Source: Chiloscyllium plagiosum (lineage: Eukaryota). Taken from it: a DNA stretch of 64,000 nucleotides. The stretch is from contig NC_057716.1 of the NCBI RefSeq assembly GCF_004010195.1, forward strand, positions 16,492,720 to 16,556,719. Direction: 5' to 3'. Both the position numbers and the translations under genes were made by a program. The notes below the pieces were generated by a model. The model worked only from the letters and a program-made list of their open reading frames with translations. It was not told the DNA's origin and did not search any database. Below, in pieces: positions 60 to 62,572 of this stretch. Position 1 is the stretch's first letter. The number at the start of each line of letters is the position of its first letter.

Positions 60-750
60 CACAGAATGCATTTAGGGAATGATCAGCCTGGTCATCATCT
101 GCAGATGCCTTACAGACAAACACCATGACAAAGACATGGCACAACCTAACTCACTGGCCACGCCACCGTACATAAAGCGTCTCTGAACTGACAGCCAGAC
201 TTCTCTGACCATTGGAATCCACGATAGCCCATAAACTGACAGGCACACTCAGACAACAACTCACCAGGACAAAATATCCAATACCCTTCACGTGCAGGAC
301 AAACATAATTTACAAGATTCCATGCAGAGACTGCACGAGATGTTACATAGGACAAACAGGCAGACAGCTAGCATCTACGAACACCAACTAGCCACTAAAC
401 ACCACGACCAGCTAACCTGGCAGCCATACACACAGACGACAAGGACCACAAATTCGACTGGGACAACACAACGATCACAGGACAAGCTAAACAGAGCACA
501 GCCACAGTGTGTCTGGAAGCATGGCACTCAGCCACGGACTCCATCAACAAACACGCAGACCTTGACCCAATGTACCCGGCCACTACAACAAACAACCAGA
601 AGCAGCAGGAACCGAACCAAATAAATTCCAGAAAACACATTATAGCAGCGTTTCACAGGAGGCTCCAAAGCACTGGAGTCACCTGGACAGGGGATGAAAA
701 GTCTGTAAATCGACTTCCCAGCTCGGCAAACATACCCACAACTACGACAA
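60..750 (+). mobile_element. Decayed Penelope-like retroelement (RT thumb + GIY-YIG endonuclease + 3' pLTR), Poseidon/Penelope-type
   Basis: Frame from 299 reads TNIIYKIPCRDCTRCYIGQTGRQLA (GIY-YIG motif). It is preceded by PYIK..SELTARLL..IAHK..TLRQQLTRTK and followed by EHQLATK..CLEAWHS, with frameshifts and stops. Degenerate hammerhead-like motif at 670-706. Confidence 0.9.
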
Positions 751-1191
751 GGTAGGAGTGTCCACCAATGGCTGGACACATCCATCACCAATGCTTGACA
801 CCATCCAGGACGAAGCAGCCCAAGTGGTCGTCATCATCAAAATCAGACCTAAAAGTCAAAATCCTGCAACACTCTTCCTAACAGTGCTACTTGCATTCCA
901 AGGAATACAGTGGTTTGAAAAGGCACTTTCTCAAGGGATTTTCAATGAGCAATAAATACTACCTCAGATTGCATAACTATCTGAAGAGCCCAATCCTTCC
1001 AGTACTTCAGACTGTCCTAAAAGGTTAGGCTCTTCTCCAGCTTCAGATTCTATAGAAATCCCTCATGTTCCTCGACACACTGCACTGGGAAGGATGCCCT
1101 GGGCAATGAAATCAAGGGATCATAAGCAGTTTTCAAAATAATTCATCTGTCCAGTGGTGCTTCATCTTTCTTGTATTATATTTCTCCTCAC

Positions 1192-1307
1192 CTCGAGCAA
1201 TAGATCTCCCTCGGAGATGATTGGCTGACCATTTTGCTGTCCATTCCCTTGAAAGTGTGCTGAGGGCTTGTCCGTCAACCAGCCAGCCCTGCTCCTCTTG
1301 ATGCCGG
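1192..1307 (-). CDS. Candidate spliced exon of an unidentified host gene
   Basis: Minus strand: long polypyrimidine tract (ctgtttcttttctaaagtgtccctttgtttgtattccttacag|) and donor GAG|GTGAGG, 116 bp of non-repeat sequence. Two frames are fully open; the third has a stop followed by ATG in good Kozak context (MDSKMVSQSSPREIYCS). Confidence 0.5.
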
Positions 1308-1494
1308 CTGTAAGGAATACAAACAAAGGGACACTTTAGAAAAGAAACAGGGTTATGAAACAATGCGCAGCTCGCTTTTCAGAGAAAATTAAAATTAGCG
1401 CCAGACAAGAAATTACTCATGAAAGGTGGCTTTTTCTCATTAAACATGAGTTTATTCTGAGCAGCCAGATTAATAAACAGGAACTGACAGCACA

Positions 1495-1689: not shown

Positions 1690-3270
1690 CAGTTCTTTTT
1701 TAATCCATGCATGCAATCTGAGGTAGTATTTATTGCTCATTGAAAATCCCTTGAGAAAGTGGCAGTCAGCTGCCTTTTAAACCACTGTACACCTTGGAAT
1801 GCAAGTCGCACTGTTAGGAAGAGAGTCGCAAGATTTTGACTTTATGACAATGAAGGAAAAGCAATATACGTTCAGATGGTGTGGGGCTTGGAGAGGGAAC
1901 TGCGAAGTGGTGCTCTCACGTATCTGCTGCCTCTGTCTTTCCAGTGGATAGTGGCTGCAGATAGATTTAGAAAGAACTGTCGAAGGAGCCTTGGTGAGTG
2001 GCTGCAGTACGTCTTGTGAATGATGTGGAGATGCTGGAGTTGGATTGGCGTGGATAAGGTCAAAAATGAAATGACACCAGGCTTTAGTCCAACAGGTTTA
2101 TTTGAAACTGCAAGCTTTCAGAGCTCTGCTCCTTCCTCAGGCATGATTGATATAGAGCTATAAGACAGTATTTATAAGCAAAATGTTATCTAGGGACAAA
2201 GGTTTGAAAGGAATCTGGATTTTGCATTTTACTTCAGCAGTCTACCACCTAACTGATTCAAGGATCCAACAAAAGCAGCTAGTTTTAAAGGTGTTAACTT
2301 TTTGTTTATTCATACTGTGTCTTGTATCTCCCCACCATACCACGCCCGAGGAAGGAGCAGAGCCTCAAAAGCTTGCAATTTCAAATAAACCTGTTGGACT
2401 GTAACCTATTGTCATTTGATTTTCATCTTGTGGATGACACACAGTGCTGCCACTTTGCATCTGGCATAACGCAAGTGAACAGTGAAAGTGGCGGATGAGG
2501 TTCCAATTCAGTGGGCTACTTTGTCGTGGATGGTGTCAAGCAAGTGGAGAGTACTTAATCACTTTTGACTTAACGCCTTGTAGGTTGTGGACAGATTTTG
2601 CGAATTCAGGAGATGAGTTATTTACCTTAAAATTCCTAGCCTGTTGTAGCCTCAGTATTAATTGCGGTGGTGTAATTCAGTTTCTGATCAATGGGTAATC
2701 TAGGGTATTGATTATGGGGAATTCAGCAACAGTGATACCATTAAATGTCAAGGGGCAATAGTTAGATAGACTCTCTCTTTTTGAAGGTGACTCCTGAGTG
2801 ATTCAAACCTTATCAGTTTAAGTCTGGATATTGTTCAAATCATGCTGTAGGGAGATATGGACTATTACAGAACCGGATAATCATAAATGATGCTGAACAT
2901 TGCTCAACTATCAGCAAACATACCTACTTCTGACCTGCAGATCAAGGCAAGGTCAATGATGGTTGAGCAGTGAAACTACCCTGAGGAACCCTGTAGTGAT
3001 ATTGGGGAACTAAGATGATTCACTTCAAAACCACAACCATCTTCCTATACACTCAGTATTTCTCCCACTAAAGGGATTTTCTGCTCGTACCCACTGATTT
3101 CAATTTTGAAAGGGCTCCTTGATGTTATCCTCAAATCAAAAGCTGCCTTGACATCAGGGGCAGTCACTCTCACTTCACCTCTGGAATTCACCTTTTTGGA
3201 ATACATTTGAACCAAGGTTGGAGGACATCAGGAGCTGACTGGCTATGGCAGAATCCAAATTGAGTGGTGG
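1690..3270 (-). mobile_element. Old non-LTR retrotransposon (CR1/Jockey group), 3' portion, interrupted by later insertions
   Basis: Reverse strand near 3140-3190 reads NSRGEVRVTAPDVKAA (RT motif 3 region). Same family as 56355-57560. Resumes briefly after 3924. Confidence 0.75.
2024..2425. mobile_element. Inverted pair of Penelope pLTRs (family B) with hammerhead core
   Basis: 2060-2145 and 2343-2425 are reverse complements. TSD tcttgtg(a/g)atga at 2012-2023 and 2426-2437. Minus arm reads ugc-CUGAGGA-A-GGAGC-aga-GCUCU-GAAA-GC-UU-gca. Confidence 0.85.
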
Positions 3271-6262: not shown

Positions 6263-6427
6263 AGTGTTCCTCAGCTGCTCTAGTTTGAACTTCAATCACT
6301 CCTGTGTCCCTCATAGCAAAGTCAACTTGTAGGGTGAAAGTATAGGATAAGGCCAACCCACCAGTCTAGCATATCCATCCAGACCTGGCACTTGCCATTG
6401 CTTTAACGTTGGTGAGATGTGAAGTCT

Positions 6428-6517
6428 GAAAGTGTGTCGCTGGAAAAGCGCAGCAGGTCAGGCAGCATCCAAGGAGCAGGACAATCAACGTTTCAGGCAT
6501 GAGCCCTTCTTCAGGAA
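6428..6517 (-). mobile_element. Penelope pLTR fragment (family A) with hammerhead core
   Basis: Minus strand CUGAAGA-A-GGGC-ucau-GCCU-GAAA-CG-UU at 6486-6514; flanking repeat gtgaagtct at 6419-6427 and 6518-6526. Confidence 0.8.
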
Positions 6518-6986
6518 GTGAAGTCTCCCTAACAGCACTTTGGGGGTACCTACACCACACAGACTGCAGTGTTTCAAGAAGGCAACTCACCACCATGTTC
6601 TCCAGCGGGATTAGCAACAAATACTGGCCTTACTACAGCTCCCAAGAATAAAGTCAAAGTGATGTAAATGGAGACGAAGGATTATTCCACAGAACACAAT
6701 CATTCTGGTGTTGTGGTGAGGGATGGGGGCTGGTGCTATTGGAAGGGGATGTTAGGTGAGACGGCAGGCTGGGTGAAAATGATGACTGAGATGTGAAGGT
6801 GACATTCTGCAATTCTGTTTGCCTGCCTCAGGGACCTGCAGGATATTCAGAGTACTGACCCTTCAGGACATTGGGTCCATCCAGACAACAACACTGACCC
6901 AGTCTGCTAGGAAACAAGTGCTGAAAGGTCAAATGACCTCACCTTACCCAATATGTTGTATGTTTCATCTCCCTCCCTCCCTCCCG

Positions 6987-8165: not shown

Positions 8166-8897
8166 TCCACATGGGTGAACTGACAGTCAACCCAAGGATG
8201 GGCCAGTTCAGACCAGTGCCAAGTGGAAGCAACCATCACTACACTAATAAAAAGAAAGCAACCACACAAATAAAACGGAACCAAGACTTCATAAAGCTAA
8301 AAGCAGGCAATCTGCCGACTGTCACCGTGGTAACCACTCGGTAAAGAATGTGGTAAATGGGACAGTGCCATCTTGAGGGATATTCATACTGCACTGAAAT
8401 ACTGGTGGTTACAATATTGTAACTGGTGCCCAGAAAAACCAAGGTCCCTCAATTAAGAGTATCACGCACGCCAACACAAACCTACCGTGCAGCTTTTCCA
8501 AACAGCTAAACACACAAATCATAAGGCTGCCGTGGTATCTGCCTTTTCCTGATTCTGCTCAAGTACATTTCGTAACTTTTATTTTGTAGCGAGTTTGACA
8601 GTCCAATTTTAAACCAAAGTTGGATGGGATATCTTTTTCCCCTCTGGCATGAGGAGAAACTGTAGATGAACTGGCATGCTCTCCCACTGCTTTCAAACAC
8701 GTTTGGAGGGGTGAAGTGTTTGCCAGCTGTGAAGGCAGGCGCAGGCTGGGAGGTCACTGGGTCGGGTGTTGCTCTTATTTTGTGAGCAAGCACGAACATC
8801 CTGTGCTTCCACTCAGCCCTCTAGCGCGTGCAGACTGCGCAGCAATGCTACAAAAACCACCGGCATCAGTGGCTGGGCCAAGCTAAAGGAGATATTT

Positions 8898-9242
8898 GGG
8901 GCAGCACGGTGGCTCAGTGGTTAGCACTGCTGCCTTCCAGTGCCAGGGACCCAGGTTCAATTCCAGCCTTGGGCGACTGTCTGTGGGGAGTTTGCACATT
9001 CTCTCAGTGTCTGTGTGGGTTTCCTCTGGGTGCTCCAGTTTCCTCCCACAATCCAAAGATTGCCATGCTAAATTGCCATGCTAAATTGCCCATAGTGTTC
9101 AGGGATGTGGAGGTTAGGTGCATGAGTCAGGGGTAAATGTATAGTAGTAGGGGAATGGGTCTGAGTGGGTTAGTCTTCAGAGGGTCAGTGTGGACTTGTT
9201 GGGCCGAAGGGCCTGTTTCCACACTGAAGGGATTCTATGATA
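8898..9242 (+). mobile_element. HE1-type tRNA-derived SINE
   Basis: A box TGGCTCAGTGG, B box GGTTCAATTCC, V-domain (gtgggtttcctc..gggtgctcc..tttcctcccaca) and CR1-derived 3' tail. Confidence 0.92.
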
Positions 9243-13605: not shown

Positions 13606-13838
13606 GAGGAGAAAGCAAGGACAGCAGATACTGGAGGTCAGGACCAAAGAATGTGACGCTAGAAAAGCACAACAGGCCAGGCAGCGTTCAAGGAGGAGGA
13701 GGAGGAGAGTCAACGTTTCGGACATATACCCTTTTTGGTCCCTATAAGCAAATCAATGCCACTTCATGACACACCACACTTTGCCAAATCACCTTTCCTG
13801 ATGAAGGGCTTATACCCAAAACATCGATTCTCCTGCTC
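13606..13838. mobile_element. Inverted Penelope pLTR fragments (family A)
   Basis: Minus arm 13606-13735; plus arm ctgatgaagggcttatacccaaaacatc from 13798. Degenerate TSD cttg(g/t)ttgt(g/a)tc at 13594-13605 and 13839-13850. Confidence 0.75.
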
Positions 13839-14493
13839 CTTGTTTGTATCTGTCTTGTACAGAGCTTTCACTTTTCTGTAGGTCAGCCCATGGCATTAGA
13901 ACACACCAGACACATTCCTGCACTGAAATGGGAATCCGTGATCTCAGGGGTCAACACTAACGGTTTGCTTTTTAAGCACGTGTTATTACAAGCTGCTGTC
14001 TGTGTGTCGAGATCTCGCCAGTTCATACAACGACGCGGCTTGTGACAGCAGAGAGAAAACCATTGCGCAGAAGGTTCGGCGGAGGCATTCTTTTATTTTG
14101 ATGTCAGTCAGAGCTCTTTCAAGAGAGAATAAAAAACACCCAGCATTTTTCCTCGAGCTGACCTCTTTTTGTTGAGGTCCATCGAAGCACTCAAACACTG
14201 GGGGGAAAAAATACACAGCCCAGTTTCAAAATGGCTCCAGCCCGCAAGGTCTCATTGGAGAAAAGCTGGTTACAGGTCACTGGAAGGTACACTAAATTTT
14301 TTAAAATCTGGCTGGAGTCCAATCATCGATAGCTAACTTTTCCGTCTCTTAAACAGTTCAGTCAAATAGGCCGATAGAAGCATATAATGCCTCAGTGTCA
14401 ATCCAGCCTTGTCAACAATACCTGGACAATGGGATAAAAGCTTAAACAACAGGAAATGTTGTTTCAAAGACAAGGTAATCCCACGTCCATGAT

Positions 14494-15770: not shown

Positions 15771-15959
15771 GGGCAGAATTGGGTACTGCAGATGCTGGAG
15801 ATTAGAGTGGTGCTAGAAAGGTACAGCAGGTCAGGAGGGGCAGGAAAAGCAACATTTCGGGTTCCTGATGAAGGGCTTTTGCCCAAAACATCACTTTTCC
15901 TGCTCCTCAGATGCTGCCTGACCTGCTGTGCTTTTCCAGCACCACTCTAATCTTGACCT
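15771..15959. mobile_element. Fold-back pair of Penelope pLTR fragments (family A)
   Basis: 15800-15862 is the reverse complement of 15880-15953. 13-bp TSD aaatgctccatca at 15758-15770 and 15960-15972. Mutated hammerhead core at 15865. Confidence 0.85.
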
Positions 15960-16339
15960 AAATGCTCCATCACCTACCTGATCCACTTGCCACTTGTACC
16001 TTGGCTCCCTACCCACCTGGCAAGCGACTTAGCTGGCACAATACTTACCTAGCACCTGATCCAGCTTTCAACCCAACCACGTATGCATTGGGCATCCTTC
16101 CCTCCCTGCACCTTAACCACACGCCTTTACTGTTGGACAGCAGTTGTCCAAGTCGTTGTCTGAGACTCTGGGGCTTACAATTTCAGATTGCAGGAGCTGA
16201 CCACTGTCAAAAGGGAATGTGGTTTTCATTCCTCAAACAGTTCTATGTTACATCAATCCTTTTAATCCCTCAGGATACAGCTGATCAGGCCATTACTCCC
16301 ATTAATTTTCCTGATAGTGATTCTGATGGCTTCAAAGTT

Positions 16340-16655
16340 ATTTAAAAAAATCCCACATCAGGTTATAATGCAAGAGGTTGATTTGAAAGCATAAGCTTTC
16401 AGAGCACTGCTCCTTCATCAGGTAGCTAGTGGGGCAGGATTACTGGATACAGAATTTATTGTAAAAGATCAGAGCATACAGTTGTATGATACAATTTATT
16501 GTAAAAGATCAAAGTCTATCCTATGATCCTGTCCCATGAGCTACCTGATGAAGGAGCAGCGCTCCGAAAGCTCATGCTGTTGGACTATAGCCTGGTGTTG
16601 TGTGATTTTTAAATTTGTCCATCCCAGTCAAACACTGGCCCCCTCCACATCCTGG
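16340..16655. mobile_element. Inverted pair of Penelope pLTRs (family B)
   Basis: 16345-16440 and 16526-16612 are reverse complements; both arms keep CUGAUGA...GAAA. Confidence 0.85.
16541..16578 (+). ncRNA. Minimal hammerhead ribozyme motif (family B)
   Basis: CUGAUGA(16545)-A-GGAGC-agc-GCUCC-GAAA(16566)-GC-UC; helix III is the palindrome AGCU; stem I weak. Confidence 0.65.
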
Positions 16656-16756
16656 CGATTGTTTCAGGTTGCTCACTCTGTCTTGCCTCTCAATTTTCTA
16701 CTATCCTTGGGAATTTTTTTTTTGCACATCCGACTGTGATCACAGAGAGAAAATAA

Positions 16757-16880
16757 AAACTGAAAGAACTGCAGATTCTGTAAATCAGAAATGGAAACAG
16801 AGGTTGCTGGATAAGCTCAGCAGCATCTGTGAAGAGTAATCAGAGTTAAGGTTTTGGGTCTGATGACCCTTCCTCAGAAC
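16757..16880 (-). mobile_element. Penelope pLTR fragment (family C), decayed hammerhead
   Basis: Minus strand CUGAGGA-A-GGGUC-auca-GACCC-AAAA-CC-UU (GAAA mutated). Confidence 0.7.
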
Positions 16881-17011
16881 AGGATACAAAATACTTGTGC
16901 AATATATCTGCCATTTCCTCATGTCCCGTTATTAATTCCCCACTGTCACCTTAAGTATCTAATATTTTCTTTAGGCACTCTTTACCTCTTTAAATAGTTG
17001 CAGAAGCATTT

Positions 17012-22541: not shown

Positions 22542-22928
22542 TATATTAAAAGGGGTTATATTAACCTAAGCCGTTGCAAGCTCAGACACAAGAGTGCCAA
22601 ATTACTTCCTCCTCACATCCACAAGTAAAGAAAGACGTTGCATTTATGTATCCTGCGTTTTCATCCCCAAAGTGCAGCAAGGTCAATGAGAAGATTCTGA
22701 AAAGAACACTGTGAAGTCATGAAGTGCAACAGCTTTGACACAATGACAAGATAAAAGCGCCTGTCTTAATTTGAAAGTCCAGTAGCAAATATTGGCCATT
22801 GCACCAGTAAATATCACTTTACCTCAAACTTGGTCAGTGACACTCCATTCAAATTACTTCACTCAAAATGTCCACAGAATTGCAACTGAGCTGAGCTGCT
22901 TCTGACGAGCATACCTTAGGAAAGCAGT

Positions 22929-23259
22929 CATGATTCGGAGATGCCGGTGTTGGACTGGGGTGTACAAAGTTAAAAGTCACACAACACCAGGTTATAGTCC
23001 AACAGGTTTAATTGGAAGCACACTAGCTTTCGGAGCGACGCTCCTGCATCAGGTGACTGTATTCTAACAGATGAAAGGCTTAACAGACAATCAATTCTTC
23101 AATGTATAATTTCAGTTACATCACACTGCAAATTTTTGCTATAAATTCTGTGTTACGACCGAGCCCTCCACAATCACATGAAGGAGCGTCGCTCTGAAAG
23201 CTAGTGTGCTTCCAATTAAACCTGTTGGACTATAACCTGGTGTTGTGTGATTATTAACG
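22929..23259. mobile_element. Young inverted pair of Penelope pLTRs (family B)
   Basis: 22969-23056 vs 23173-23258 near-perfect reverse complement; 12-bp TSD taggaaagcagt at 22917-22928 and 23260-23271. Confidence 0.92.
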
Positions 23260-26200
23260 TAGGAAAGCAGTGTCTTCAACAATGAAGCCATCATGAGAAC
23301 TGGCAGGGAGAGAGCTCCTTCAGCAATGACCCAGCTTCCAGAATTTTCCTTAATCTGAAAACTTTGCTGGGGGACCCTGCTGAACTGACGACCTGGATTT
23401 GAGAGATTGCTTCCCACCACCAACCCTGCCCCCCTCCCCCCCCTGCCGAGTGATAACTTTAAGATACACCAGTATAACGAGGCTTACTGCTGAGTCAGCC
23501 TGTGAAGTGGGCACTCAAACCTCTTGCCAGTCTGTGCTGTTCCAAGCATCCAGTCAAGGTGCGTTCAGGCACACTGTTACTGGATCCTGTGCCTCTTCAG
23601 CCAGTTAGGGAGGGGGGGTAGTTCCAAGTGTCAGTGGAGCCAATGAGTGCCGTGGGGAGTGCGTGTGCCAGGCCAGGAAAAGGTGGGAGATCAATGGCCA
23701 CAAAAGCGCAACGCCAAGGCCTCAATTCCTGAAATAGCTCCGCTCACACATGAATTTGATCCAACAAAAGGGAGATGGGAAGAGAGCACCACTGGCTTAA
23801 CCCCCTGGCAAGTGCAAGCATCCTCAGCGAAAAGGGGCAGTCAGTTTGATCATTTGCTCAAACGTTCGACCAATTTTTATTTTTGTCTCCTTTCTGGAGG
23901 CCAGATTCACCAGAATTCACTGTCGGGATTCTACAACAAAAAGAAGGATAAACCTTTGGAATGTTGGGACTGAGTGCAACTAACTTTCAAAAAGATTGCC
24001 CCACTCCCAGGAAGCCATCTGCATCGGGACAAGCCACTGGCCCTGGGGAGACTTACAGCTGGCAGGGAAATGGAGCAAATCTGGGGCTTTTGCTATAGAT
24101 GGCAGCAAAGAGGCCATGCCATCTTGCTTTCCCCCCCCCCCCCCCCACCAAAAGCAGCCGACCGCTCAGTCGGGCACTGTTTGTGGAGGCTGAGCTCACC
24201 CTGCAGTGTCCCTCTCCTCTCTGCAGCATTGTTTTCATATACAGCCAGCACTCAGGGAGCTCTGGGGAGCCCACAAATGGAAAGACTGACAGCTCCAGAA
24301 GACTCCCGTTTGTGAGAGATGCAGCAAAATAAACCAACAGCTTTAACCTCAGGAGGATCCCAACACCGTGGCTGAGAAGAGTCAATGCCTGGACTCATTC
24401 CCAACCACAACAAAACATGGACACGACACTGACCAGAGGGATTTTTGTTTTGCACTGTAATAATTACTCAGATCTTTCCCACTCTCCTTTTCAGCCAATG
24501 GGGGGGGGGGGGGGGGGAAGAGAGAGAAAGAGAGAGAAGGTAGCCACATGACACTCATAGCATTACATCATGGTTGTCATGTGCTCTAAAAGTAGTTCCC
24601 TTCAGCAAGTATATACATATTGCTCGATGCATACACAACGAAGCAAGTCCTAAAACCAGAGGTCAGTTCATTTGGCACCTTCATCCTTCTTTAGCTTATC
24701 TCCTACATCACTGCACTATGCAGTACTATCTGCAAGGTCTACCCTCCCTAACTGTGCCCTCCAACTCTTTACCACTGTACTGTACTTGTGCCGTCTAACT
24801 GCTTTCCCCAGCCTAACACTAGCAAGATGAAAGTAGCGCATAGTTCGCCCTCACCAGAAATTCTGCACCTTAGCTAGAACAAAGCTCAGAAAGGGCTGGA
24901 AATCCTCAGGCAGCAGTTGCAGAGATGAACGCAGAGTTCACTTTTCAAGTCTGTGACCGGTCACCAGAGTTGAAGACAGACAGAATTGCTGGTGTTTTAA
25001 ATAAATAAAGAGGAAGAGCGCAGGAAGAACAAAGAAAGCAAGGTCCAGGTACGGAGGATCACAATCTCAGAACGGCGATGGTGCAAGAGGCCATTCACCC
25101 CAACATGCCTGCACTGGTTCTACTATCTAGTGCCAATTCCTGCCTTTTCCCATATCCCTGCAGACAATCACTGTCCAAAATAAAACAAGCAACCTCCTCT
25201 TGAATTTAATTGCCTCAATTGAGCACTGCCTTCAGTTAGTGTGTCCCATACTCTAACTGTTGTCTCAAGAGATTCTCTCCCACATCAGGATAGGGTTAGC
25301 AAATGAGCCCCGGGCAATGCCGGTTGGATTCGGTACGTCCGTGGAGATGGGTTGGGAACACAGTAGGATGTGAAGTGAGGCCAGATCCCAGGCTTTTGCA
25401 GCCTATCATTGCATCTTCACGTAAATACATTCATTCATTGAAACACCCTTTTGACTGGGCTGAGATCACGGGAAACCTTCCACCCTTACACAAACAGCAT
25501 AAAGGGTGGGAGAGATTAAATAACAAAAATTTCACAATACAAGAGCCAAAGGGATTTGGATGTGTGAAGTAAAGGAACAAACTGCTTGTGCCCAGAGGGG
25601 GTGCGAACGGTTGGACAGCAGCACCTTATCCCCTGGTTCTGGTCCTTGATGCATTTCAGTTTGATATTGGGTTTGGTTTCCAACTTGACATCCAGCCACT
25701 GCTTAACCCTGTCCACCCATTTCCTCCTCCAGAATATCGTCTCATCTCCAATCTCCTAACCCACAAGAGGCGCACTTGCACCTTTCCTCAAGCAGTACGT
25801 TGAGATTGGAAATGACAGATTTCCACTGCAGTGTGATGGGCTGGAATTTTGATGAGTTGGCATTTCGATGAGTGAAGATGACTATGAATTACTTTTATTT
25901 TAAAATCGAATAACGCGGTCATTGCATGCTGACTTCCAGCCAGTCTTGGTAGAGTGCAGGCTTGGTCGTGATGGCGATGATGATGATAGACCAGGCTGTG
26001 CTGAGAGACATGAAACATTGTCTGCATCAGACTCCAGCCAGTACGGACACAAGGAAAGCCACCAGAGCTCAGTCACTGCCTGCTGAGGCTTTTAGATTGA
26101 GCATTCCCTGCCTCAAGGAATGGCTCCCAACGAGGAACAGACCAACCCGGAGACTCCACTGCTACCTCTCTCTGATCCCAACGTGGCTTCAAACCTCAAG

Positions 26201-28144: not shown

Positions 28145-29864
28145 ACTAGTGGGTGACAGAAGAACAACAGACATCACATTTAATTAATTAAAAATACAGT
28201 ACACATTTAAAGACAAGGCTTTTTCAAGTACTTGCTGGGAAAGACAGTGCCCTTTTAAATATGAATGGCATTTGCAACATCTGTGGATTATTTTGTTTGT
28301 CTGTGTGTGTGTGTATATATACACACATATATATATATATATATATAGCACTTTATAGGCAAAGACGCCTTACCAGAAACACAGACGAAAACCGTCACAT
28401 TCTCATTAGCAAATTGGACCCTTTCAGGACGAGGCCTCAAGTGCCACGGCAGCACTTTACTGGCTCAGGCCTCCGAGTCTGCTTCTGGTTCCCAGATTAA
28501 TCCAATGCCTCAGCGTACGCTATTCAGTCTCATGAGCTGTCTCATGTGGAACGTGACACTGCACTACAAGGAACAGAGCTATTCCCAATTCACACCACTT
28601 CAGCCAGTTAACATCAGGGAAATAAAGCTCACGACAGTAACAGGAAAAGCTACTAAAATCCATCAGGTCAGGCAGCATCCATGGAGGGAACAAGTGTAGT
28701 CAAGCGAGTGGGCAAAAGGAGGGATTAGACAGTGTCTTGTCAAAGGAAACCTAGGCCCTGAATAGCAAAGCTCATTCTAGAGAAAGACCAGGATTGGGGA
28801 TGAGACTATGGGGTAGATTGTAAACTTGTTTCTTGTCAGTGAAACTGGCCGGGTTGGGTGGGGAACAGAGAGAGACAGTGACAGATAGAGAGCAAAATAA
28901 AAAGCCCACTCCAGACAGCCTTCGAAAACAATCCTGCTTAGGGTACTAACCCCTTCATTTCGAGTGGGTATCTCTTCTGACCCTTTTCCTCCCCGCATCC
29001 TGCCTTTGTGAAAATGGCTGGATGGGGCAAAACAGCTCCTGCCATGCCTCCATGTTGGTGCCCAAATGATCAGGACCAAAATCCATCTTTTGGTAAAATG
29101 GAACCAGAAATGCCACACCTCAAATTGTTCAGAAACAACCCTAAAAATAATTTCTGGGGAAAGAAAGGAGAAATCTTACTGTGACCTTTGAACCCCATGC
29201 AGCCACAATGTGTGCATAGCACCAATCTTGGATTTTTTTAGCCAATCCAAATACTCCTTTAAGCCTATCCAGGGATTAAAAAGTAAATTCCCACATCAGC
29301 AATTGGAACAGCAAGGAAGGATCAGAGAGAGAGACAGTGAGAGAGAGAGAGAGAGTGAGTGCAAGGCAGCAAGGACAGAGTGCTCACAGCTGGTGGTCCA
29401 TTTAACAAGAATAACCCATAGTTCCAGCTACAACCTCAAACATTTTCTCTATCATTGCTTTTCGTGTTCATTAAATCACAATTTTCTGATTGCTCGAGGT
29501 AACTCATCAGCATCCTGCCTCTCTCTCAGCCATGTTTCTCCCCAGGAGGGTGCCCTTCCTGCTGACAGGATAACAACGGTCGATCGCATTCTGATAGTGC
29601 ATTAAGGGGAAAGGCAACGACAGCACAGAGATTCCCCAGAGTGGATCAACATTATCAACACTCCTCGGGCAAACTCAGGCACAGACTTTACTGCGGCTGT
29701 TCGGTTGGGAATTTGAACAAAGACATGTCTTTTTCCATTCCACCACCCCGCCCCCCCCCCCCCCCCGGTTTTCCTCTGTGTCCCCACCTTACTTGAAAGA
29801 AGTTCTGGGATTGATATATCAATGAACAGAAACCAGCATATCCCATTATAAAAGATGAAAGTGT

Positions 29865-30073
29865 TAATGTAAGATTGTTTACTGTATCACATCTCCATGA
29901 CACTGGACTCCTTGGGCTATAAACTCTGAGCATGATTTTAACCTCCACAACCACCTGAAGGAGCAGCGCTCCGAAAATTAATACTTCCAAATAAACTTGT
30001 TGGACTATAAATCTGGTGTTGTGAGATTTTTAACTTTGACCACCCCAGTCCAACACTGGCACCTCCACATCAT
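29865..30073 (+). mobile_element. Penelope 3' end/pLTR (family B), hammerhead core with a 3-nt deletion
   Basis: ccacctgaaggagcagcgctccgaaa..aaataaacttgttggactata..ccccagtccaacac. Confidence 0.85.
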
Positions 30074-30713
30074 CTAACCCAAGGAAAGAAGCCAGGACAG
30101 ACAGCAAAGGCAATATCAACTGAGCCCAACGGGATCCTGAAAGGAGCTGCATTTCACTTTACAGTGAGCCCCAGCAGACTGTCTTCATCGCGGCCCACCA
30201 AGCCACTCAGAAATATGCTGGGTAAGGGCTGGACCTGTCCTGGGACCCTGTCCGTCAGTTCAACCCTGGTTCACTTCACCACCTGAAGGCGGCCTTTCAA
30301 GGGCCAGTTGTGATGGAGTATAAAAGAGTCTCAGATCACTGAGTGGCACTCAACTTGGCCTAAGGTTGAACTTCAACTCAAAGCCATTCTTTGCACTACT
30401 GATGCCTGACAAAGGCCTCGTACAAGTCACAGTTTCTGAAGGAAGTTGAAGTTGGGCAGGATGCTCCAAGATGCTGACGATGCAGCAAACAGCTTCAGCA
30501 CTCCACCGGCCTTCGCTACAAGCTGTCGAGAACCCCTGGGGCTTTTTAAAACAACGAACAAAGAGGAGCTCAGTATCAGATCCTGTCACTACCTGCTGAA
30601 ACTGAACACTCACTGTGCACACGGCAGCCTCAGTTAACAAGGAGTATCAAACTCAAAAACAATGCAGCGAAAGACAAAATGTTTCTGTTCCCACCGACAT
30701 ATATTCTAAATGT

Positions 30714-30891: not shown

Positions 30892-30946
30892 TGACAACTC
30901 ACCAATCCAGAGTACCTTCCAAGTGATGCTTCAAGAACAAGAATCT

Positions 30947-31884: not shown

Positions 31885-32099
31885 AGGAGAAAGTGAGGAC
31901 TGCAGATATTGGAGAGTCAAGAGTTTAAAAAAAAAGCGTAGCAAGGGACAGCAGGTCAAGTGGCAGAGGAGCTGGAGAGTCAACGTTTTGGGCATAAAGC
32001 CTTCATCCAGAAGGTCTTATGACCGAAAGAAACATCAACTCTCCCGCTTCTTGGACACTGCCTGATCCTGCTGTGCTTTTCCAGCGCCACACTTTTCGA
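31885..32099. mobile_element. Fold-back pair of Penelope pLTR fragments (family A)
   Basis: Inverted arms; flanking repeat cttt(a/c)ataaaaacact at 31869-31884 and 32100-32115. Confidence 0.8.
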
Positions 32100-35512: not shown

Positions 35513-35669
35513 CCACCGTTCAGGCACACTGCCTCTATTCCTGATGAAGGGCTTTTGCCCGAAATGTCGATTTCCCTGCTCCTCCGATGCTGACAGAACT
35601 GCCGTGCTTTTCCAGCGCCACTCTAATCCAGAATCTGGTTTCCTGCATCTGCAGTCCTTGTTTTTACTC
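35513..35669 (+). mobile_element. Penelope pLTR (family A) with near-intact hammerhead core
   Basis: CUGAUGA(35541)-A-GGGC-uuuu-GCCC-GAAA-UG-UC; 14-bp TSD tgtcatattccttt at 35499-35512 and 35670-35683. Confidence 0.88.
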
Positions 35670-50458: not shown

Positions 50459-52377
50459 ACCCCTATGACTCAAATGCAAAATTCGACATGCTGGAAGAAA
50501 GATTAGTCAAGTGAGAAAATAACTTATACAATCATCTCAGGAGGCAAGTCAACTGAATGTGCAAAGTATGGTCAGGGGAACGCTCCAGAGTCCAGCTTCC
50601 AGTTAGCTCTGTTTCATTGAAGAGGCACAATTGAAGTGTACCTCTTCACGCTATCAGGAAGCAGTTCAAGTCTTTTGGCCCATATTTGTATGACTTGGGG
50701 CCCAGTCCCACTTGTTGCTCAACTTAAACTTGTCTCAAAACTTCTTGTTACTTTATTTGCTAATGGCTTTGTTTGTGATTGTGTCAAACTGCTAAAAAAG
50801 TAGTGTGTCGCCCATGAGGGCTAGCATGACAAAGTATTTACTGATTAGAAAGTAAACACATTCAGGAGAACATTCCTGAAAATAAACAGTGGAACTGGAG
50901 TGTAACTAGGGGAGAACGGGTAGTACTTGTTAAAAGACTCAGCCAACATGCTGGTTATGATTTAACGCTAAGTCAGAAGTCACTGGAATTTGCCCATCTG
51001 TGAGGTCTGTTTACATAAATTGTCATAAACTAAACAACAGAAACCATCACACACAATCATGTTAACACAGTAACTTTGTTATTTGAAAGGAATATTGAAC
51101 AACAGAGTCCAACATTGCTGTCTCTGGTCAGAATTTTTGAAAGTAAACGATAACTGTTTGTACCCAATGACCTCTCCCATCTTATACTGCACACTGCGAG
51201 CTCACTTCACATTATCCTCAAAGGAAATTATATCTTCCCAACAACACACTGGGAATGGGAAGAAGTCTTGCTCTCACCACTTAGTAACAAAATACTACAT
51301 CCTTTGATCTTCTTCAAAAATTCTGGAATGCCTCAACTCAAATATTAAGCAATCTTACTTCAACAGAAACCATCAATATTTACTGGTCAATAAATAACCC
51401 CTTAATAATGCCACAAACTTAAATAATTGCTGGAAAATGGTTTGCTTTTGGAGTGACAACTCTGCTCACCTTCTAGTGACACTGCACCAGAGAACAAGTA
51501 CTATTGGTCCTATCCTTATTTCTATTGCTTGGATTTCTCCTCCATTATGTTGTGGCAGGAATTTTAGGTGGGGGGGGGGGAAGAGAGGGAGGGAGGGAGG
51601 GAGAAGAGATCAGGTGACATTTTGCACCATCGTGCACCCCACAGAAGGTGGGCTCATATTAATAATCTCAACAAAGAACAAAATCCTTCATCTCTTGTTC
51701 ACACAACAAGAGGGACAATCAGACGGACAGTGCAGTTTCCAGGTCCAAAGACACCACTGAAAGTCAGCCAGGGAAAGCCACCGACAGGAACAAAATAAGG
51801 AAAACAAAAGACAATGATGTACTTAAAAGGTAGCTGAAAATTAATAGGTGATCCCAATGTATTGGTGGAGTTACAGGCTATTGGCTGCTGGACAGTATCA
51901 TTGATTGGGTGGAAAAGTGACAAATGGAATTCAATCTGGAGAACTGCGAGTTTATGGATTAGGGTGGGGACAGGAAGAAAAATAAGGAATGCACAATAAA
52001 CAAGATAATGAGAGAGGTAGAGGTTGTGAGGGAACACAACATTGCAATGATGATATTTACATTCACCAGCTGACCAAAACGTCACACAGTAACCATGGAA
52101 ACATGCAATGGGATCATGAGATCACATTTCACCACCAGTGACCTAGGCAAAGACTGGGTGTTCAATCAGCTGGTCCAAGAGTTGGGCAAGCTTCCACAGT
52201 GACTGCTGGATGGAGCAGAAGCCATGATCAGCAAATTATATGCAATTATTGGAATGAAAGGCGGCCATTCAGCCCCTTGAACATGTTCTGCCATTCAGTT
52301 AGAATACAACTAGTTTGTACCTAAATCCCAATGACTTGGTTTTGATCAGTTCTCCTGGAATGCACTGTCACTTCAAT

Positions 52378-52920
52378 CAGAGTCATACAGCATGGAAACA
52401 GACCCTTCAGTCCAATTCATCCCCCCCGACCAGATATCCTAAATTAATCTAGTCCCTTTTGCCAGCATTTGGCCCATATCCCTCCAAACCTTTCCCATAT
52501 GCCCATCCAGATGCCTTTTAAATGCTGTAACTGTACCAGCCTCCATCACCTTCTCTGGCAGCTCATTCCACCCTCTGCGTGAAAATGTTACCCCTCAAGT
52601 CCCTTTAAATCTGTTCTCTCTCACCTTAAACCTATGCCCTCTAGTTCTGGACTCCCCCACCCCAGGGAAAACACCTTGTCTTTTTATCTGACCTGTGCCC
52701 CTCATGACTTTATAAACCTCTGAGGTCATCCCTCAGCCTCCAATGCTCCCGGGAAAACAGCCCCAGCCTATTCAGCCTCTCCCTGTAGCTCAAATCCTCC
52801 AACCCTGGCAACATCCTTGTAAATCTTTCCTTAACCTTTGCAAGTTTCACAACATCCTTCTGATAAGCGGGAGACCAGAATTGAATGCAGTATTCCAAAA
52901 GCGGCCTCACCAATGTCCTG
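52378..52920 (-). mobile_element. CR1 3' fragment
   Basis: TLVRPLLEYCIQFWSP..ERFTRMLPGL..YRERLNRLGLFS. Confidence 0.93.
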
Positions 52921-53296
52921 ACATCTTTCACAAGATTTCAAATTATTTGTTGTTTCAGGTCAGGGTGCACCTCTCCGCTGAGTTTTAAATTGTCTGGTTC
53001 TTTAATTAAAATATCAATTTCCATTTTCCTGGCTACTTGGCTGGTTTCCCAATCACAAAACAACTGTTGCCTCTGTGAGCCTCAGCCGTTCCTCCATGAT
53101 ACCGCAGCAATCAGTCACCAAATTATCCTGTTCACCTTTCATTGCAAAATGGGACATTTTTACGTGGCAAAAAACAAACAGAGAAGAAAGCGAATCTCAG
53201 ATAAGGCTGCTAAAGGGTTCCTCCAGGAAGCTGCCACTTGATGTAGCATTGCCAGTTGATCTCAGTGGCTAAGCAATGAACAACACGAGAGCAGAA

Positions 53297-53334
<38 letters not shown>

Positions 53335-53553: not shown

Positions 53554-54994
53554 AACCAACCAATGAGAGACGGGTCATTAACAAGCTTAATCCACATGCT
53601 CAACTCTTTAAGGGCACGCTGGACTGAGAGACCCGGGTTCAACTCCCACCTGACCCCGATATATGCAATAACCAATTTTCCAACCAAGAGATGTTAACTA
53701 AAACATAATAAAGAGAAAGAGAAAAACACATGGGAGAGGCTGCAAACTTCCAGTGCTGGAATGGATTTGAACAAAACTTGTTTCACGACTGCAGATAATC
53801 CAATTCCAGCCAATGCTTCGCACTGTTCCCCCTTACAAGTTGAGATGTCAAAATGGCTTCTGCACTGCTGCTCCAATGCTTTACTACTGTCTTGCAGAAG
53901 GATGGGATCTAAACACTGGAGACTGGTCTTCTGCTCAATAGTGGAATCAGGTGGTGGAATTTGGTCAGTGCACTGGCATCACAGCGCATTGTTCAACCAG
54001 CGTGTAAAGATGTTGGACGTCCTGGATTGTCTCAATCTCCTCAGTAACAAGCTCAACAGGCTCACTGCCTCTGGTCCACCGCAATTTAGAATCAGATTAA
54101 AGGTAGAACAAAGCATCTGCTCTGGCCAACCCTCAAGCACCAGCATCAAACTACCTTGATACACAAAGACTGGTTCACACTTCAATTCCCTCGGACAGAC
54201 TCAGGCTGGTGCTCCAGCTCCTAGACAGGAAAACAAAAGCACACAACACGCAGCTGCTCAAGCTCATAACCACCTTGGAAGGCAATTAATTGAGATGGTC
54301 CATAAATGACGTCCTTGCCTACAGTGCAGGCAGCACGGGTGAAAACTTGTCCAGCACTGGGAGAAAGCAAGCCCACTTGGGGAAAACCCAGCTTGAAGCA
54401 TCTGCAGGCCCATGGCTTAAAAAAAGAGACTGCAATATTTGACTTTTTAAAACTTATTTAATTTTCTACTTTTACATGAAGAAAGCTGTAGTGCTGAACT
54501 TTTAAAAAGTTGTGTTTTATTTTTCTACTGTTGCAACTAAGATTTTGTACTTTGTACCTAAGATGGTGCCATGGCAACAGTGTATGCTTTGCACTTTGCT
54601 CTTGTATCCCATACACGTGACAATAAAACCTCAACGCAAATCTTTTAAAAATGCACAAATCTTTGAATACTACTGCAATATCCAAACTTTAAACCAGAGG
54701 AGGACAAGGGGCTATCAGTGTGGTTAAGCATTCCCAAGCCTCAGTACAGTGTTCAGTGGTAGCCGTGTGTGACACATTGACAAGATGTACTGCAGCATGG
54801 CTCCCCAGCATCATCCGAAGCCATGACATCCACCATCCCCAAGAACCACGGGCACGTGAGAAAGCTAGCACCATGCAAGTCGCCCTGCAAACCATACACT
54901 GTCCTGACTTGGAAGCACAATGGTTATCCTTCAGTGTCACTGGGTCAAAATCCTGGAACTCCCTCCCTGGTCTCAATGTGGGTATACATACAGA

Positions 54995-55523
54995 ACTGAA
55001 ATTGTGTTGCTAGAAAAGCGCAGGTCAGGCAGCATCCAGGGAACAGGAGAATCGACTTTTCGGCCATAAGTCCTTCTTCAGGAATGAGGAAAGTTTGCCC
55101 AGCAGGCTAAGATAAAAGGTAGGGAGGAGGGACTTGGGGGAGGGGTGTCAGAAATGCGACAGGTGGAAAGAGGTCAAGGTGAGGGTGATAGGTCAGACTG
55201 GGGAGAGGTCAGGAAGGCAGTGCTAAGTTCGATGGATTTGACTGAGACAAGGTGGGGGGAGGGGAAATGAGGAAACTGGTGAAATCCGAGTTCATCCCTT
55301 GTGGTTGGAGGGTTCCTAGGCGGAAGATGAGGCGCTCTTCCTCCAACCGTCGTTTTGTTGTGGTCTGGCGATGGAGGAGTCCAAAGACCTGCATATCCTT
55401 GGTGCAGTGGGAGGGGGAGTTGAAGTGTTGAGCCACAGAGTGGTTGGGTTGGTTGGGTTGGTTGGGTTTCCAGCAACACATTTTCAGCTCTGATCTCCAG
55501 CATCTGCAGACCTCACTTTCTCC
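54995..55523 (-). mobile_element. 5'-truncated Penelope-like element (Neptune-like GIY-YIG C-terminus) with 3' pLTR and inverted 5' pLTR
   Basis: SVAQHFNSPSH..RRLEEERLIFRLGTLQPQGMNSDF; family A pLTR at 54995-55085 and inverted at 55468-55523; TSD tatacatacaga at 54983-54994 and 55524-55535. Confidence 0.93.
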
Positions 55524-58633: not shown

Positions 58634-59267
58634 TATACAGTACGCTGTTGAATGCAACACGCCTGCCGTTAGAAACCTGGCTGTCCGCTGATTTACTGAG
58701 AGAAATGTCCTGGAGAACTGGCTGATTTAAAAATAAATGAAGCGGTAAATCAATTGGAAGAAAATGGAAATTAAAAGTAAGAGGGATATCAAAGATTTAT
58801 TTCATCAAAGCTCTTTGCCAGAGTGGAGAATCTCCAAGGCAGCACCAGGACAAGTCAGAACTTGTTTTTAATAAGTACGTAGAAGGATTGGGTCTGGAAC
58901 GCATTTTTTTTTAAAACTCTTTTTTTTTTAAAAATAGCCTTATGGGTTCTGTGAAGTGAAAATGCAGCATGCAATCTCACTGGCTGCTCCACCAAGCAAC
59001 TGGCTGCCTGCCAGGCTCCAGCAGCTTGCACACCACGAAGACGCTAAACACTGACCGTGGTGAACCCAACCCTTACTGTCTATTGAGAGGCTTCAGCTGA
59101 TCTGAGAGAGAGAGAGAGAGAGAGTAAATATTGACTCAGGATTTCACTGGAGTTAACTCTCTGCACTCGCAAAACTTAGCGATAAACTATGCTGCTTGTT
59201 TCAGCTTTGTGCACTCATTTTGGGTCTTGCCTAGCTGAATGGATGAACCATTTATTTGTTGTCACAA

Positions 59268-60182
59268 ATAGAGTCGCAGATGTACAGCATGGAAACAGAC
59301 CCTTTGGTCCAAATCATCCATGCCGACCAGATATCCTAAATTATTCTTAGCCCCATTTGCCAGCATTGGGCCTATATCCCTCTGACCTCTGAACCCTTCC
59401 TATTCATAAACCCATCCAAATGCCTTTTAAATGTTGCAATTGTACCAGCCTCCACCACTTCCTCTGGCAGCTCATTCCATATACGCACCACCCTCTGCGT
59501 GAAAAAGTTGCCCCTTAGGTCCCTTTTAAATCTTTCCTCTCTCACCCTAAACCTACGCCTGCTCGTTTTAGACTCACCCACCCCTTGACTATTCACCCTA
59601 TCCAAGCCCTCATTATTTTATAAACCTGTGTAAAGGTCACCCCTCAGCCTCTGACACTCCAGGGAAATCAGCCTCTCCCTGTAGCTCAAATCCTCCAACC
59701 CTGGCAACATCCTTGTAAATCTTTTCTGAGCCCTTGCAAGTTTCACAACATACGTCCTATAGCAAGGAGACCAGAATTGCACGCAATATTCCAATAGTGG
59801 CCTAACCAATATACTGTATACTTGCAACATGACCTCTCAACTCTTATACTCAGAGCATTGAGCATAAGGAAAGCAGACCAAACGCCTTCCTCACTGTCCC
59901 ATCTATCTGTGACTCTACTTTCAAGGAGCTATGAATCTGCACTCCACGGTCTCTTTGTTCAGCAACGCTCCCTGGGACCTTACCATTAAGTGTATAGGTC
60001 CTGCTAAGATTTGTTTTCCCAAAATGCAGCACCTCATATTTATCTAAATTAAGCTCCATCTGCCACTTCTCAGCCCATTGGCCCATCTGGTCAACGTCCC
60101 GTTATACTCCGAGGTAACCTTCTTGGCTGTCCACTACACCATCTGTTTTGGTGTCATCTGCAAATTTATTAACTGTACCTAG
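59268..60182 (-). mobile_element. CR1 (HER1-like) 3' fragment
   Basis: WAEKWQMELNLDKYEVLHFGK, LVRPLLEYCVQFWSP, FFTQRVVRIWNELP. Confidence 0.95.
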
Positions 60183-61844
60183 GTTAAGGATCAAGAACGG
60201 CACTGACCACATCGAGGGAGATACAGTGAAAAAAAGTAGTGTTTTGTTGCCACAATATCTCATGATTCTGAAGTACAAGAAGAGAATATTCTTAAATAGA
60301 GTTCATCTTCATTGGTGGGGTCCCAGACATCGCTCCAGGACTTCTGCAAGATTCCCATTCTGGGCCTAGTCTGCCATTCTAGGAGTCTACTTCCTCAAGC
60401 TCTTTCTGTAGTCACTGTATGGTGGAACCACTGGTGTGTGCCTCTGTGCTTTGTCCAGTTACCCTGTTGTTTGAAATCTTTACCCACACTCCGAGCAGAG
60501 AGCAGAGGATGGCTGGTGAGAGATGAGGAACAGCTCGCACCTTGCCTGACCAATGTTGCGCTATGACAGCTTCCATCCCAAGGCAAATCCTAACATTGGG
60601 AGGATTTCCTACTTCTTCTGCCCCCACTCCATTCCCATTAACCCCTTGTTGAAGTAGGGTCCCCATGATGACAGTAAGTTTCTTGATGGGCACACAGCAG
60701 CCCCTGTTCACACTTGGGAGTCCCAACGCAGCATCCTGCGAAAGGAGTCAACATGTTGCTGAGGGATAGACAACAGCAGCCTGTTTTGAACGCTGTCTTT
60801 CAGCCACTCGCTCAACAGCAGACTTCCATGATTCACTAGAACCAATCCAAGATGGAGGCCTGTTCACCTGTTTTTATTGCACTGCAATCTCATTGAGATC
60901 AAAGAGCCACAACTGGCTGTGATATCAGTGTCTGAACATGCAGCACTCCGCACTTTATCAAACACAGATTCTCCTGTCAGGATATACCTTATCACAGTCT
61001 TGAGGTACACAGGCCTTCAAACACAAAACCAACAGCTTTAAAAATGTATAAATCACTCACAGCCCTTTAGAAAGCTCCTCAACTTTAAAGGATGCTCTTT
61101 TGGAACTGCCACAGCTGAGAAAACATGCACTATTTCAAAACTGTTTCTATTTAAAAACATTACGTTGGATAGCAAACACCAGGCCACCAACAGCTGTAAA
61201 TGTAAAATGCCCAAAACCTCTTGTCCCATTGGTGCGGGGACCTAAACTCTCCTGTGAATGGTTAGCATTCTTTTAAAATAATTAAAACACATGTAATTGG
61301 ATTTGTTTCACTTCTATCTCAGAGTCAATAACTGGCTTGTGTCCCTCAGGAGAGATGTGACCTGAGAGACAGAGAGGGATACCTTACAGGAGAGGTGGGG
61401 ATGGGCTGGGGTTGTTTGAACATCACTCACCCTGTTAACCCCCCACAACACAACAGAAAAAGGTTTCACCACACAGTACATGGCTCCCCACAGCACATAC
61501 AATGCCGTAAGCAACACTCTGGGGTGTAAGTGTTGGAAAAGATAGGTTTGCAGCCTTGAGCTTAGCTTTACAACAGAGAGCAGATTCTCCCCAACCCTTC
61601 CTGACTAGTCCCCAGGGTCAACAGCAAATTGACCTCCTGAATGCCCATTTTGATTCTCTTCAGACTCACCCACTTCACCAGTAAATTCTACTCGATTCCA
61701 GTTGACGACGGTTAGGGACTGATGGAGAGTGGGTCCATCAGCTGTAAATGTAAAGGAGCAACAGATGTTGACTCACTGCCACTGATAAATGTTAGATGTT
61801 ATCTAATGCATATTATTATTTGGTGTGGAGGAAGTGTTAGGTCG

Positions 61845-62572
61845 AGCACTTCGGATTTAAGATTCCTCTAATATTCAGAACCTGAGCATGAAGATCCAAC
61901 CTAACATTCCAGTGTTGACAAAGTTAAAAAGCCCACAACACCAGGTTATAGTCCAACAGGTTTATTTGAAAGTACAAGCTTTTGGATTTTTAACTTTGTC
62001 CACCCCTGTCCAACACCGGCATTTCCACATCATTCCAGTGTTGGACTGCGAGACTGCTGTGTTGTACAATGTGCATATCTTTTACACCAGATATTAAAAC
62101 ACCATAGCCAGCTGTCTCCTCAGATAAACGTGACAGATTGTGTTCAAAGAGGAGCAGACAGGTTATCCCAGGTGCAATGGCTAATGTTTTCCCTCAATGT
62201 TTAAAAAAAAAAGCAAAGTAGAATTCCTGAAGAAGGGCTTATGCCCGAAACGTCGATTCTCCTGTCCCTTGGATGCTGCCTGACCTGCTGCGCTTTTCCA
62301 GCAACACATTTTCAAAGTAGAATTCTGTCAGCAATCTGGAATAAAAAAAGTAAGTGCTAGAGAAACTCAGAAGGTCTGGCAGCATCTGTGGAGAGAAAAG
62401 CAAGAGTTCACGGTACAAGTCAAATCTGACTTTTCTTCAGAATTCTATCCTATTCCTCTAATGTAAATTGCTGGCCTTACTGACCAGTTCTGTTTTTAAT
62501 AAAGCATCAATCACATTATTGGCTGTTACCCTTCCCACAATGCAATAGTGACTACACTTCAAATGGCCATTA
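61845..62572 (+). mobile_element. Ancient DeuSINE carrying three Penelope pLTR insertions
   Basis: gttcaaagaggagcag..tcccaggtgcaatggctaatgttttccctcaa and atagtgactacacttcaa; inserts at 61918-62030, 62227-62312 and ~62330-62445. Confidence 0.65.
62219..62260 (+). ncRNA. Minimal type I hammerhead ribozyme, all core nucleotides intact
   Basis: agaauuc-CUGAAGA(62227)-A-GGGC-uuau-GCCC-GAAA(62247)-CG-UC(62254)-gauucu; stem I of 6 bp with one bulge; helix III is the palindrome ACGU. Confidence 0.75.

Follow-up and report, generated by a model that had tools for sequence, protein, structure and literature searches.

Penelope-like elements (PLEs) are retrotransposons whose 3' ends, the pseudo long terminal repeats (pLTRs), may carry minimal hammerhead ribozymes. 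In fishes such motifs have been reported for the Xena, Poseidon, and Neptune elements, and their published in vitro activity is low even as dimers (PMC4209133); slow cutting of the dimer type is also described in a review (PMC6765202). Insertions of PAc, a Poseidon element of Anolis, derive from uncut RNA templates (PMC11167929). That intronic hammerheads act on host mRNA has already been proposed in print for amniotes, and G12 is known as the general base of the hammerhead (both PMC6155905), while a 2026 preprint on retrozymes includes one cartilaginous fish (bioRxiv 10.64898/2026.07.22.740005). The present analysis concerns a window of 64,000 nucleotides, i.e., the whole stretch analysed, from Chiloscyllium plagiosum (NC_057716.1, positions 16,492,720 to 16,556,719), in which 14 hammerhead sites of four families (A, B, C, and a Poseidon-type one) had been proposed from the sequence as a possible layer of intron processing.

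These sites are very probably 5'-truncated 3' ends of four PLE families, three Neptune-like and one Poseidon-like, located in introns 2-3 of an aryl hydrocarbon receptor (AHR) gene as inert, neutrally decaying relics. What was directly observed comprises the motifs and their placement after an endonuclease, the truncated state of the copies with their flanking duplications and inverted pairing, the host-exon strand, and mutation counts. The copies are regarded as likely inert leftovers because most of them are worn, wrong-facing, or predicted to be folded shut.

Hammerhead motifs in the window

A scan for the CUGANGA box followed by a paired stem and GAAA gives six complete sites, 16545+, 35541+, 62227+, 2140-, 6514-, and 16421- (site positions are coordinates of C3, followed by the strand). 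With a strict descriptor, comprising the core, helix II of at least 4 bp, a pairable helix III, and U16.1-H17, six sites are found in the window versus a mean of 0.02 (maximum 1) in 150 dinucleotide shuffles and none in the reversed window; when helix I of at least 2 bp is also demanded, the numbers are four and zero in the window and the shuffles, respectively. A chance origin of the motifs is excluded. An Rfam scan of the window gave 7 matches at E<=5, with no hammerhead family among them; the MIR841 match was rejected, as it is the inverted family B pair at 22997-23231.

Site reading and alignment to family profiles reveal a recognisable family copy at or beside all 14 proposed places. The places thus stand, while the minus-strand coordinates turned out to be low ends, with C3 located at 2140, 6514, 16421, 16877, 23052, and 55081; 16877 belongs to the family C site proposed at ~16845, on the minus strand. 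The integrity of the motifs is lower than the original prediction held. All 11 core bases are intact in half of the sites (6514-, 35541+, 55081-, 62227+, 2140-, 16421-, and 16545+; 7/14), and the strict descriptor is passed by 6/14, so that neither the density of one motif per 5 kb nor stems that are always complementary are confirmed, helix II having mismatches in, e.g., 55081-. G12A is found in 13798+, 15865+, and 16877-, and A9C in 23052-; the CUGANGA box is partly gone in 23180+, 29955+, and at 670-706, and 55081- keeps its core with mismatches in helices II and III. Among the 14 sites, the exact young-family pattern is present in 62227+ alone.

Profiles built from genome copies detect 30 fragments in the window, 14 of family A, 9 of B, 6 of C, and 1 of the Poseidon type, split evenly between the strands (15 each) and including fragments absent from the earlier list. 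The name of the fourth family is presumptive, being taken from the naming in the original prediction and from the likeness of its end to such pLTRs. Every copy is a 3' fragment, the longest of ~500 nt (55456-54984). Inverted pairs hold 16 of the 30 fragments, and flanking repeats of 8-13 nt occur in 8 of the 13 fragments checked. The fragments are listed below, with sense and antisense given relative to AHR.

209..620, plus strand: remnant of the GIY-YIG end of a Poseidon-type PLE, decayed by stops and frameshifts, translation IYKIPCxDCxxxYIGQTGR; 287-376 matches the family-A endonuclease (tblastn, E 0.001), and Pfam gives no match for the remnant
621..754, plus strand: Poseidon-type pLTR with a broken hammerhead, core box lacking 3 nt; antisense, in intron 3
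2018..2143, minus strand: family B 3' fragment, C3 2140, core 11/11, G10.1-U11.1, U17, helix I of 3 bp; sense, predicted to be locked in a fold-back
2308..2428, plus strand: inverted family B partner with U4C and G12A; absent from the earlier list
6416..6524, minus strand: family A 3' fragment, C3 6514, core complete, G10.1-U11.1, U17; sense, no inverted partner, flanking repeat of 9 nt
13627..13846, both strands: inverted family A pair, CUGANGA box absent from the minus copy, 13798+ with G12A and mismatched in stem II
15795..15945, both strands: inverted family A pair, 15865+ with G12A; flanking repeat of 13 nt
16333..16470, minus strand: family B fragment, C3 16421, intact core, G10.1-U11.1, helix I disrupted at its first pair; sense, predicted to be locked with 16545+
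16515..16657, plus strand: family B fragment, C3 16545, intact core and stem II, helix I disrupted at its first pair; antisense
16763..16882, minus strand: family C fragment, C3 16877, G12A, broken palindrome
22926..23260, both strands: inverted family B pair, 23052- with A9C and 23180+ without the core start; flanking repeat of 12 nt
29791..30075, plus strand: family B 3' fragment of ~285 nt, core lacking 3 nt at 29955
31946..32096, both strands: inverted pair of broken family A fragments; absent from the earlier list
35523..35620, plus strand: family A fragment, C3 35541, core complete, palindrome AUGU; antisense
54984..55523, minus strand: longest family A remnant, endonuclease C-terminus at 55454-55212, hammerhead C3 55081, inverted tail 55467-55523; flanking repeat of 12 nt
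61911..62034, both strands: inverted pair of family B tails without the CUGANGA box, found with the family profiles
62223..62328, plus strand: young family A fragment, C3 62227, the sole copy identical to the young family core; begins 4 nt ahead of C3, target-site duplication of 13 nt, antisense
62331..62443, minus strand: decayed family C fragment, GAAA box lost

Structure of the four families

The majority letters of genome copies (25 of family A, 29 of B, 30 of C, and 24 of the Poseidon type) contain the CUGANGA and GAAA boxes with U16.1-H17. The core and the G10.1-C11.1 pair are common to the families, while the helix II arms differ between them yet pair. Covariation of stem II, proposed earlier, is confirmed in these majority letters and found also in helices I and III: the first pair of helix I is C-G, C-G, U-A, and A-U, and the inner pair of helix III is C-G, G-C, C-G, and C-G in A, B, C, and the Poseidon-type family, respectively. 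In family C, position 11.1 is split between C (14 of 30 copies) and U (15) because of CpG decay. Helix III is replaced by a palindromic 15.1-16.1 segment, ACGU in A, C, and the Poseidon type and AGCU in B. Helix I is short, with two to four contiguous pairs depending on the family; that of family A has two, followed by a U-U mismatch. A9 is followed by an extra A in families A, B, and C, as had been described, and by an extra U in 24/24 copies of the Poseidon type. A family-C pattern with a 5-nt loop had only two matches and was dropped as a copy count, the loop of this family being mostly of 4 nt. In family A, the variants at N7 and in loop 2 are linked (A7 with UUAU and U7 with UUUU), so there are apparently two subfamilies, of which the U7 one seems older.

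Source elements

Upstream of the family A hammerhead lies a GIY-YIG endonuclease that has CCHH residues and a CxxC linker, and further upstream a reverse transcriptase (RT). Pfam matches are to RVT_1 (E 1.4e-4 and 1.1e-5) and GIY-YIG (E 1.5e-4), and a bamboo-shark protein shares 88% identity with the endonuclease. In family C, endonuclease matches on the same strand lie just upstream in 17 of 30 loci, as read manually from the tblastn output. The Poseidon-type pLTR at 621-754 is preceded in the window by the decayed GIY-YIG remnant, of which only the endonuclease part is recognised. For family B, the RT motif of a long copy (L047/L089) matches the family-A RT over 38 aa (blastp, E 2e-5) and a cysteine linker is present; Pfam gives no match for this copy. 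A CX2-5CxxC linker between RT and endonuclease can be read in the translations of A and, decayed, of C and B. Judged by the motifs used in PMC8557442, A, B, and C appear to be Neptune-like families. The sequence evidence, i.e., the position downstream of the endonuclease together with the covariation, thus supports the proposal that the motifs are minimal type-I hammerheads at the 3' (pLTR) ends of PLEs of four families, the link being weakest for family B.

Family-A copies occur within or beside other hammerhead-bearing PLE ends at four loci (L006, L061, L137, and L139), in L006 inside a family-B end, which suggests preferred insertion of family A into pLTRs.

The host gene

The window lies in a minus-strand AHR gene whose exons were located by motif searches over 224 kb. 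Exons 1 and 2 are found ~51 kb beyond the right side of the window and the later exons to its left; the matches to human AHR have E 2e-26 for exon 2 and E 2e-14 for exon 5, and the splice phases are compatible. Two parts of the gene fall in the window:

1192..1307, minus strand: AHR-family exon 3 of 116 nt, AG/GT bounded, with contig coverage
1308..64000, minus strand: part of AHR intron 2, an intron of ~113.9 kb, the end of exon 2 being located 51.2 kb past the right end of the window

The segment 1191-1308 is the only non-repeat piece covered, and it is internal to longer contigs in 3/3 contig runs, so it looks like a spliced exon. The join of exons 2 and 3, and hence the 113.9-kb intron 2, is inferred from exon matches, phases, and coordinates. 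The window thus lies almost wholly in intron 2, with the leftmost, Poseidon-type copy in intron 3. A transcript of the plus strand may also cross it.

There are two AHR-family genes in tandem here, both on the minus strand, at ~16.43-16.61 Mb (G000:C7). The downstream one begins ~44.5 kb to the left of the window, and in the upstream one, intron 1 is very short and the ~114-kb intron 2 takes in nearly the whole window.

Since AHR is on the minus strand, 62227+, 35541+, and 16545+, all three proposed for cleavage constructs, are antisense to it, as are 8 of the 14 sites in total. Three of the six sense sites (2140-, 6514-, and 16421-) pass the strict descriptor, each with G10.1-U11.1 and U17, and the window contains no exact young copy on the sense strand.

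Abundance and decay of the copies

Exact cores number 45,146 in family A and 4,587 in family B across the 3.56-Gb genome, evenly distributed on both strands, while the reversed patterns give none. Positions C11.1 and G12 form one CpG, whose two decay products differ in consequence, as C11.1U leaves a G-U pair and G12A is lethal. Genome-wide, single changes of family A comprise 4,532 of G12A vs 4,571 of C11.1U (ratio 1.01); the lethal change is as common as the mild one, as neutral decay predicts. Changes of G5 number 617, or 1.4% of the exact-core count, a figure judged against the CpG-change counts only. In 61 incidental rows, including 5 duplicates from overlapping loci and ~10 family-C rows, core changes number 23 vs 28.9 expected (p 0.16). 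Averaged over all copies, these data are consistent with no net selection for or against activity, a verdict reached because the large counts outweigh small samples.

Given that the genome has at least 45,000 family-A hammerhead halves of perfect sequence, thousands of them must be sense-oriented within introns. Young sense copies of this kind, located elsewhere, might be cut at a low rate in trans, by pairing with abundant family-A RNA or aided by the protein of the element, as a low-level load on shark pre-mRNAs genome-wide; the host would bear this as a cost or by-product and not employ it as a device. This is improbable, even though, besides the core counts given above (lower bounds), family-A sequence is present in hundreds of contigs of three probably-RNA runs, and a PLE hammerhead of Anolis cuts only once the protein of the element is added (PMC11167929). 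The equal counts of G12A and C11.1U speak against it, as do the two contiguous pairs of helix I in family A and the Anolis data themselves, which yielded no RNA ends at the cut site (PMC11167929). If real, the load would show as a deficit of intact cores on the sense strand, and cutting of sense intronic copies in vivo would amount to a previously unrecognised burden that retrotransposons place on host transcripts. The present locus, with no exact young copy facing the right way, is no example of it, and its evidence points away from such a cost.

Ends of the short copies

Most incidental family-A copies, taken from fetched genome loci and from the window (n=45), appear to start no more than 10 nt upstream of C3 (27), while 4 extend further than 10 nt upstream and 2 start 20-29 nt after C3; the copies span the cut site. 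The 5' ends of short copies thus cluster at the 5' edge of the core rather than at the cut site (e.g., 62223), which may reflect where the RNA starts or where reverse transcription tends to stop. The peak is partly an artefact because the upstream sequence diverged between subfamilies. Family A also has two alternative 3' ends, ~35 nt apart.

The cluster of 5' ends, of which 62227+ with its 13-nt duplication is a representative unit, could indicate that the short copies form an independent non-autonomous family, retrozyme- or SINE-like (SINE, short interspersed element), and not truncated PLEs, the more so that animal retrozymes derive from pLTRs (bioRxiv 10.64898/2026.07.22.740005). Such an origin is quite unlikely: identity between the short copies and the 3' end of the endonuclease-bearing ones is 98%, copy extents form a continuum reaching RT, the 5' peak is in part artefactual, and no head-to-tail tandem monomer arrays occur among the family fragments of the window.

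Folding and dimerisation

All folding results are equilibrium predictions for naked RNA. The probability of helix II is 0.00 in all three sense family-B copies because they pair with inverted partners, located 124-206 nt upstream in the RNA; the fold-back hairpins of two of the three have z of -9.8 and -13.3. For 6514-, the predicted probability of helix II in context is 0.04-0.17. Since the palindromes of A and B differ, A-B dimers cannot pair, only 2 of the 4 bp of helix III being formed and the mismatches lying mid-helix. On paper, some sense copies could still pair. The cleavage strand of 23052- would match the core of either 2140- or 16421-, with helix III of 4 bp and helix I of 5 or 3 bp, and 6514- has a possible partner elsewhere in the same intron, at a distance of 94 kb (4 bp and 2+2 bp). 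In intron 2 the fragments show no strand bias, with 26 on the plus and 24 on the minus strand. Cofold energies were set aside, as they describe pairings other than the active dimer.

In the same intron there is a near-perfect palindromic pair of family-A cores (L100, 74296-/74311+ in window coordinates), the sense copy of which is predicted to be fully paired.

That copies along one pre-mRNA pair in cis, so that the cut intron adds a layer of processing, is the least credible of the explanations, since the transcribed host gene, the three sense copies with a full core, and the pairs possible on paper stand against a majority of antisense sites, predicted locking of the sense copies, mismatched A-B palindromes, absence of strand bias, and lethal changes that pile up freely across the genome; the claim of several cis-dimerising sites per pre-mRNA is not supported.

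Interpretation

The truncated-PLE reading preferred here would imply the following course of events. In the tandem RNA of a source element, two motifs of the same family would pair through the 4-nt palindrome and be cut as a dimer, a reaction that is probably slow and probably aided by the protein of the element. The template of reverse transcription would likely be uncut RNA, with synthesis beginning ~90-135 nt 3' of the core and in many cases ending at the 5' edge of the core or close to it. Once inserted, the copies would be passengers that the host neither uses nor notably purges.

Several observations weigh against the reading of the copies as neutrally decaying ends of PLEs. The Pfam scores of RT and GIY-YIG are under the curated cut-offs, the link of family B to PLEs consists of one decayed long copy (L047/L089), and among the 11 longer stretches examined none has an intact copy with two pLTRs, L172 having one partial tandem plus an inverted copy. 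In 24 very young family-A copies (1 of 25 rows was removed for gaps) the 10 non-CpG core columns have no change vs 5.05 expected (5.2 under an alternative expectation), a deficit with p 0.006 that was not repeated in larger samples. In the family samples C11.1U outnumbers G12A (38 vs 20), unlike in the genome-wide count. Moreover, the genome-wide test averages all copies and is blind to selection confined to sense intronic ones. Context-dependent CpG decay was considered as the source of the 38:20 ratio and dropped, the local estimates being inconsistent and the genome-wide ratio 1.01.

The families add sharks to a described class of elements, one of them very abundant and young. Tens of thousands of near-identical motifs provide a clean test of whether PLE hammerheads act after insertion, and the equality of the G12A and C11.1U counts suggests no action on average.

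Other features of the window and of another locus

The following features lie in the window outside the hammerhead-bearing fragments:

8892-9240, 17007-17363, 30707-31128, 34545-34875, 36020-36338, 46924-47166, and 50071-50387: copies of a tRNA-derived SINE, which we take to be of the shark HE1 type
12124-13399, 47817-48389, 52371-52944, 59386-60094, and 62572-63422: fragments of CR1/L2-type long interspersed elements (LINEs; RVT_1 E 1.4e-17)
25953-26402, plus strand: non-repeat segment of raised third-position GC that contains two open frames, of 150 and 75 aa; Pfam gives no match for the 75-aa frame (26096-26320, plus strand)
36941-37680: purine-rich tandem array of 24-bp (2 x 12) units, ~99% identical, adjoining a masked stretch

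In another genome locus (L032, 2-943, minus strand), an intronless open frame of 314 aa lies 650 nt from a family-B copy and presumably encodes a G protein-coupled receptor of the P2Y/GPR174 type.

Comparison with known systems

The closest relatives of the shark motifs are the minimal hammerheads of metazoan PLEs described by Cervera and de la Peña (2014, PMC4209133). Both have the type-I core with the G10.1-C11.1 pair, a base inserted between positions 9 and 10.1, a palindrome at 15.2-16.2 where helix III would be, and a short helix I, and in both a genome has several families, mostly as single motifs from truncated elements, with close pairs on opposite strands. They differ in number (45,146 exact cores of one shark family vs ~4,000 motifs in the coelacanth and ~9,000 in Xenopus, numbers that the paper calls remarkable, counted in a different way) and in helix II, which is 4-5 bp long in A-C vs 7-8 bp in Schistosoma. 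Sharks are unnamed in the main results and discussion of that paper. No paper on PLE hammerheads of sharks was found, though the families may be named in subscription papers, in Repbase/Dfam, or in supplementary files of PMC4209133 and the 2026 preprint.

With the endonuclease-bearing Neptune and Penelope/Poseidon elements (Craig et al. 2021, PMC8557442), the shark families share the C-terminal GIY-YIG domain with CCHH, the CX2-5CxxC linker (A, B, and C), 5' truncation, inverted copies, and an optional tail; placement in a clade is by motifs here, and none of the copies seen is full-length and intact. The genomic copies of PAc likewise carry the cut site uncut, and the alternative 3' ends of family A resemble its optional tail, but PAc stands apart in that its protein-assisted cleavage was assayed (PMC11167929). 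Head-to-tail monomers with one hammerhead each, the mark of non-LTR retrozymes (LTR, long terminal repeat), are not seen in the window.

The hammerheads in amniote introns of RECK, CTCL, and DTNB are also placed within host genes, with a proposed effect on mRNA biogenesis (PMC6155905). They are single, conserved, and canonical with tertiary contacts, while those of the shark are high-copy, minimal, strand-unbiased, and decaying, with the best copies of the window antisense, and do not look domesticated. The kind of motif found in the AHR introns is thus already published; new are the host gene with its strand and the count of G12A against C11.1U.

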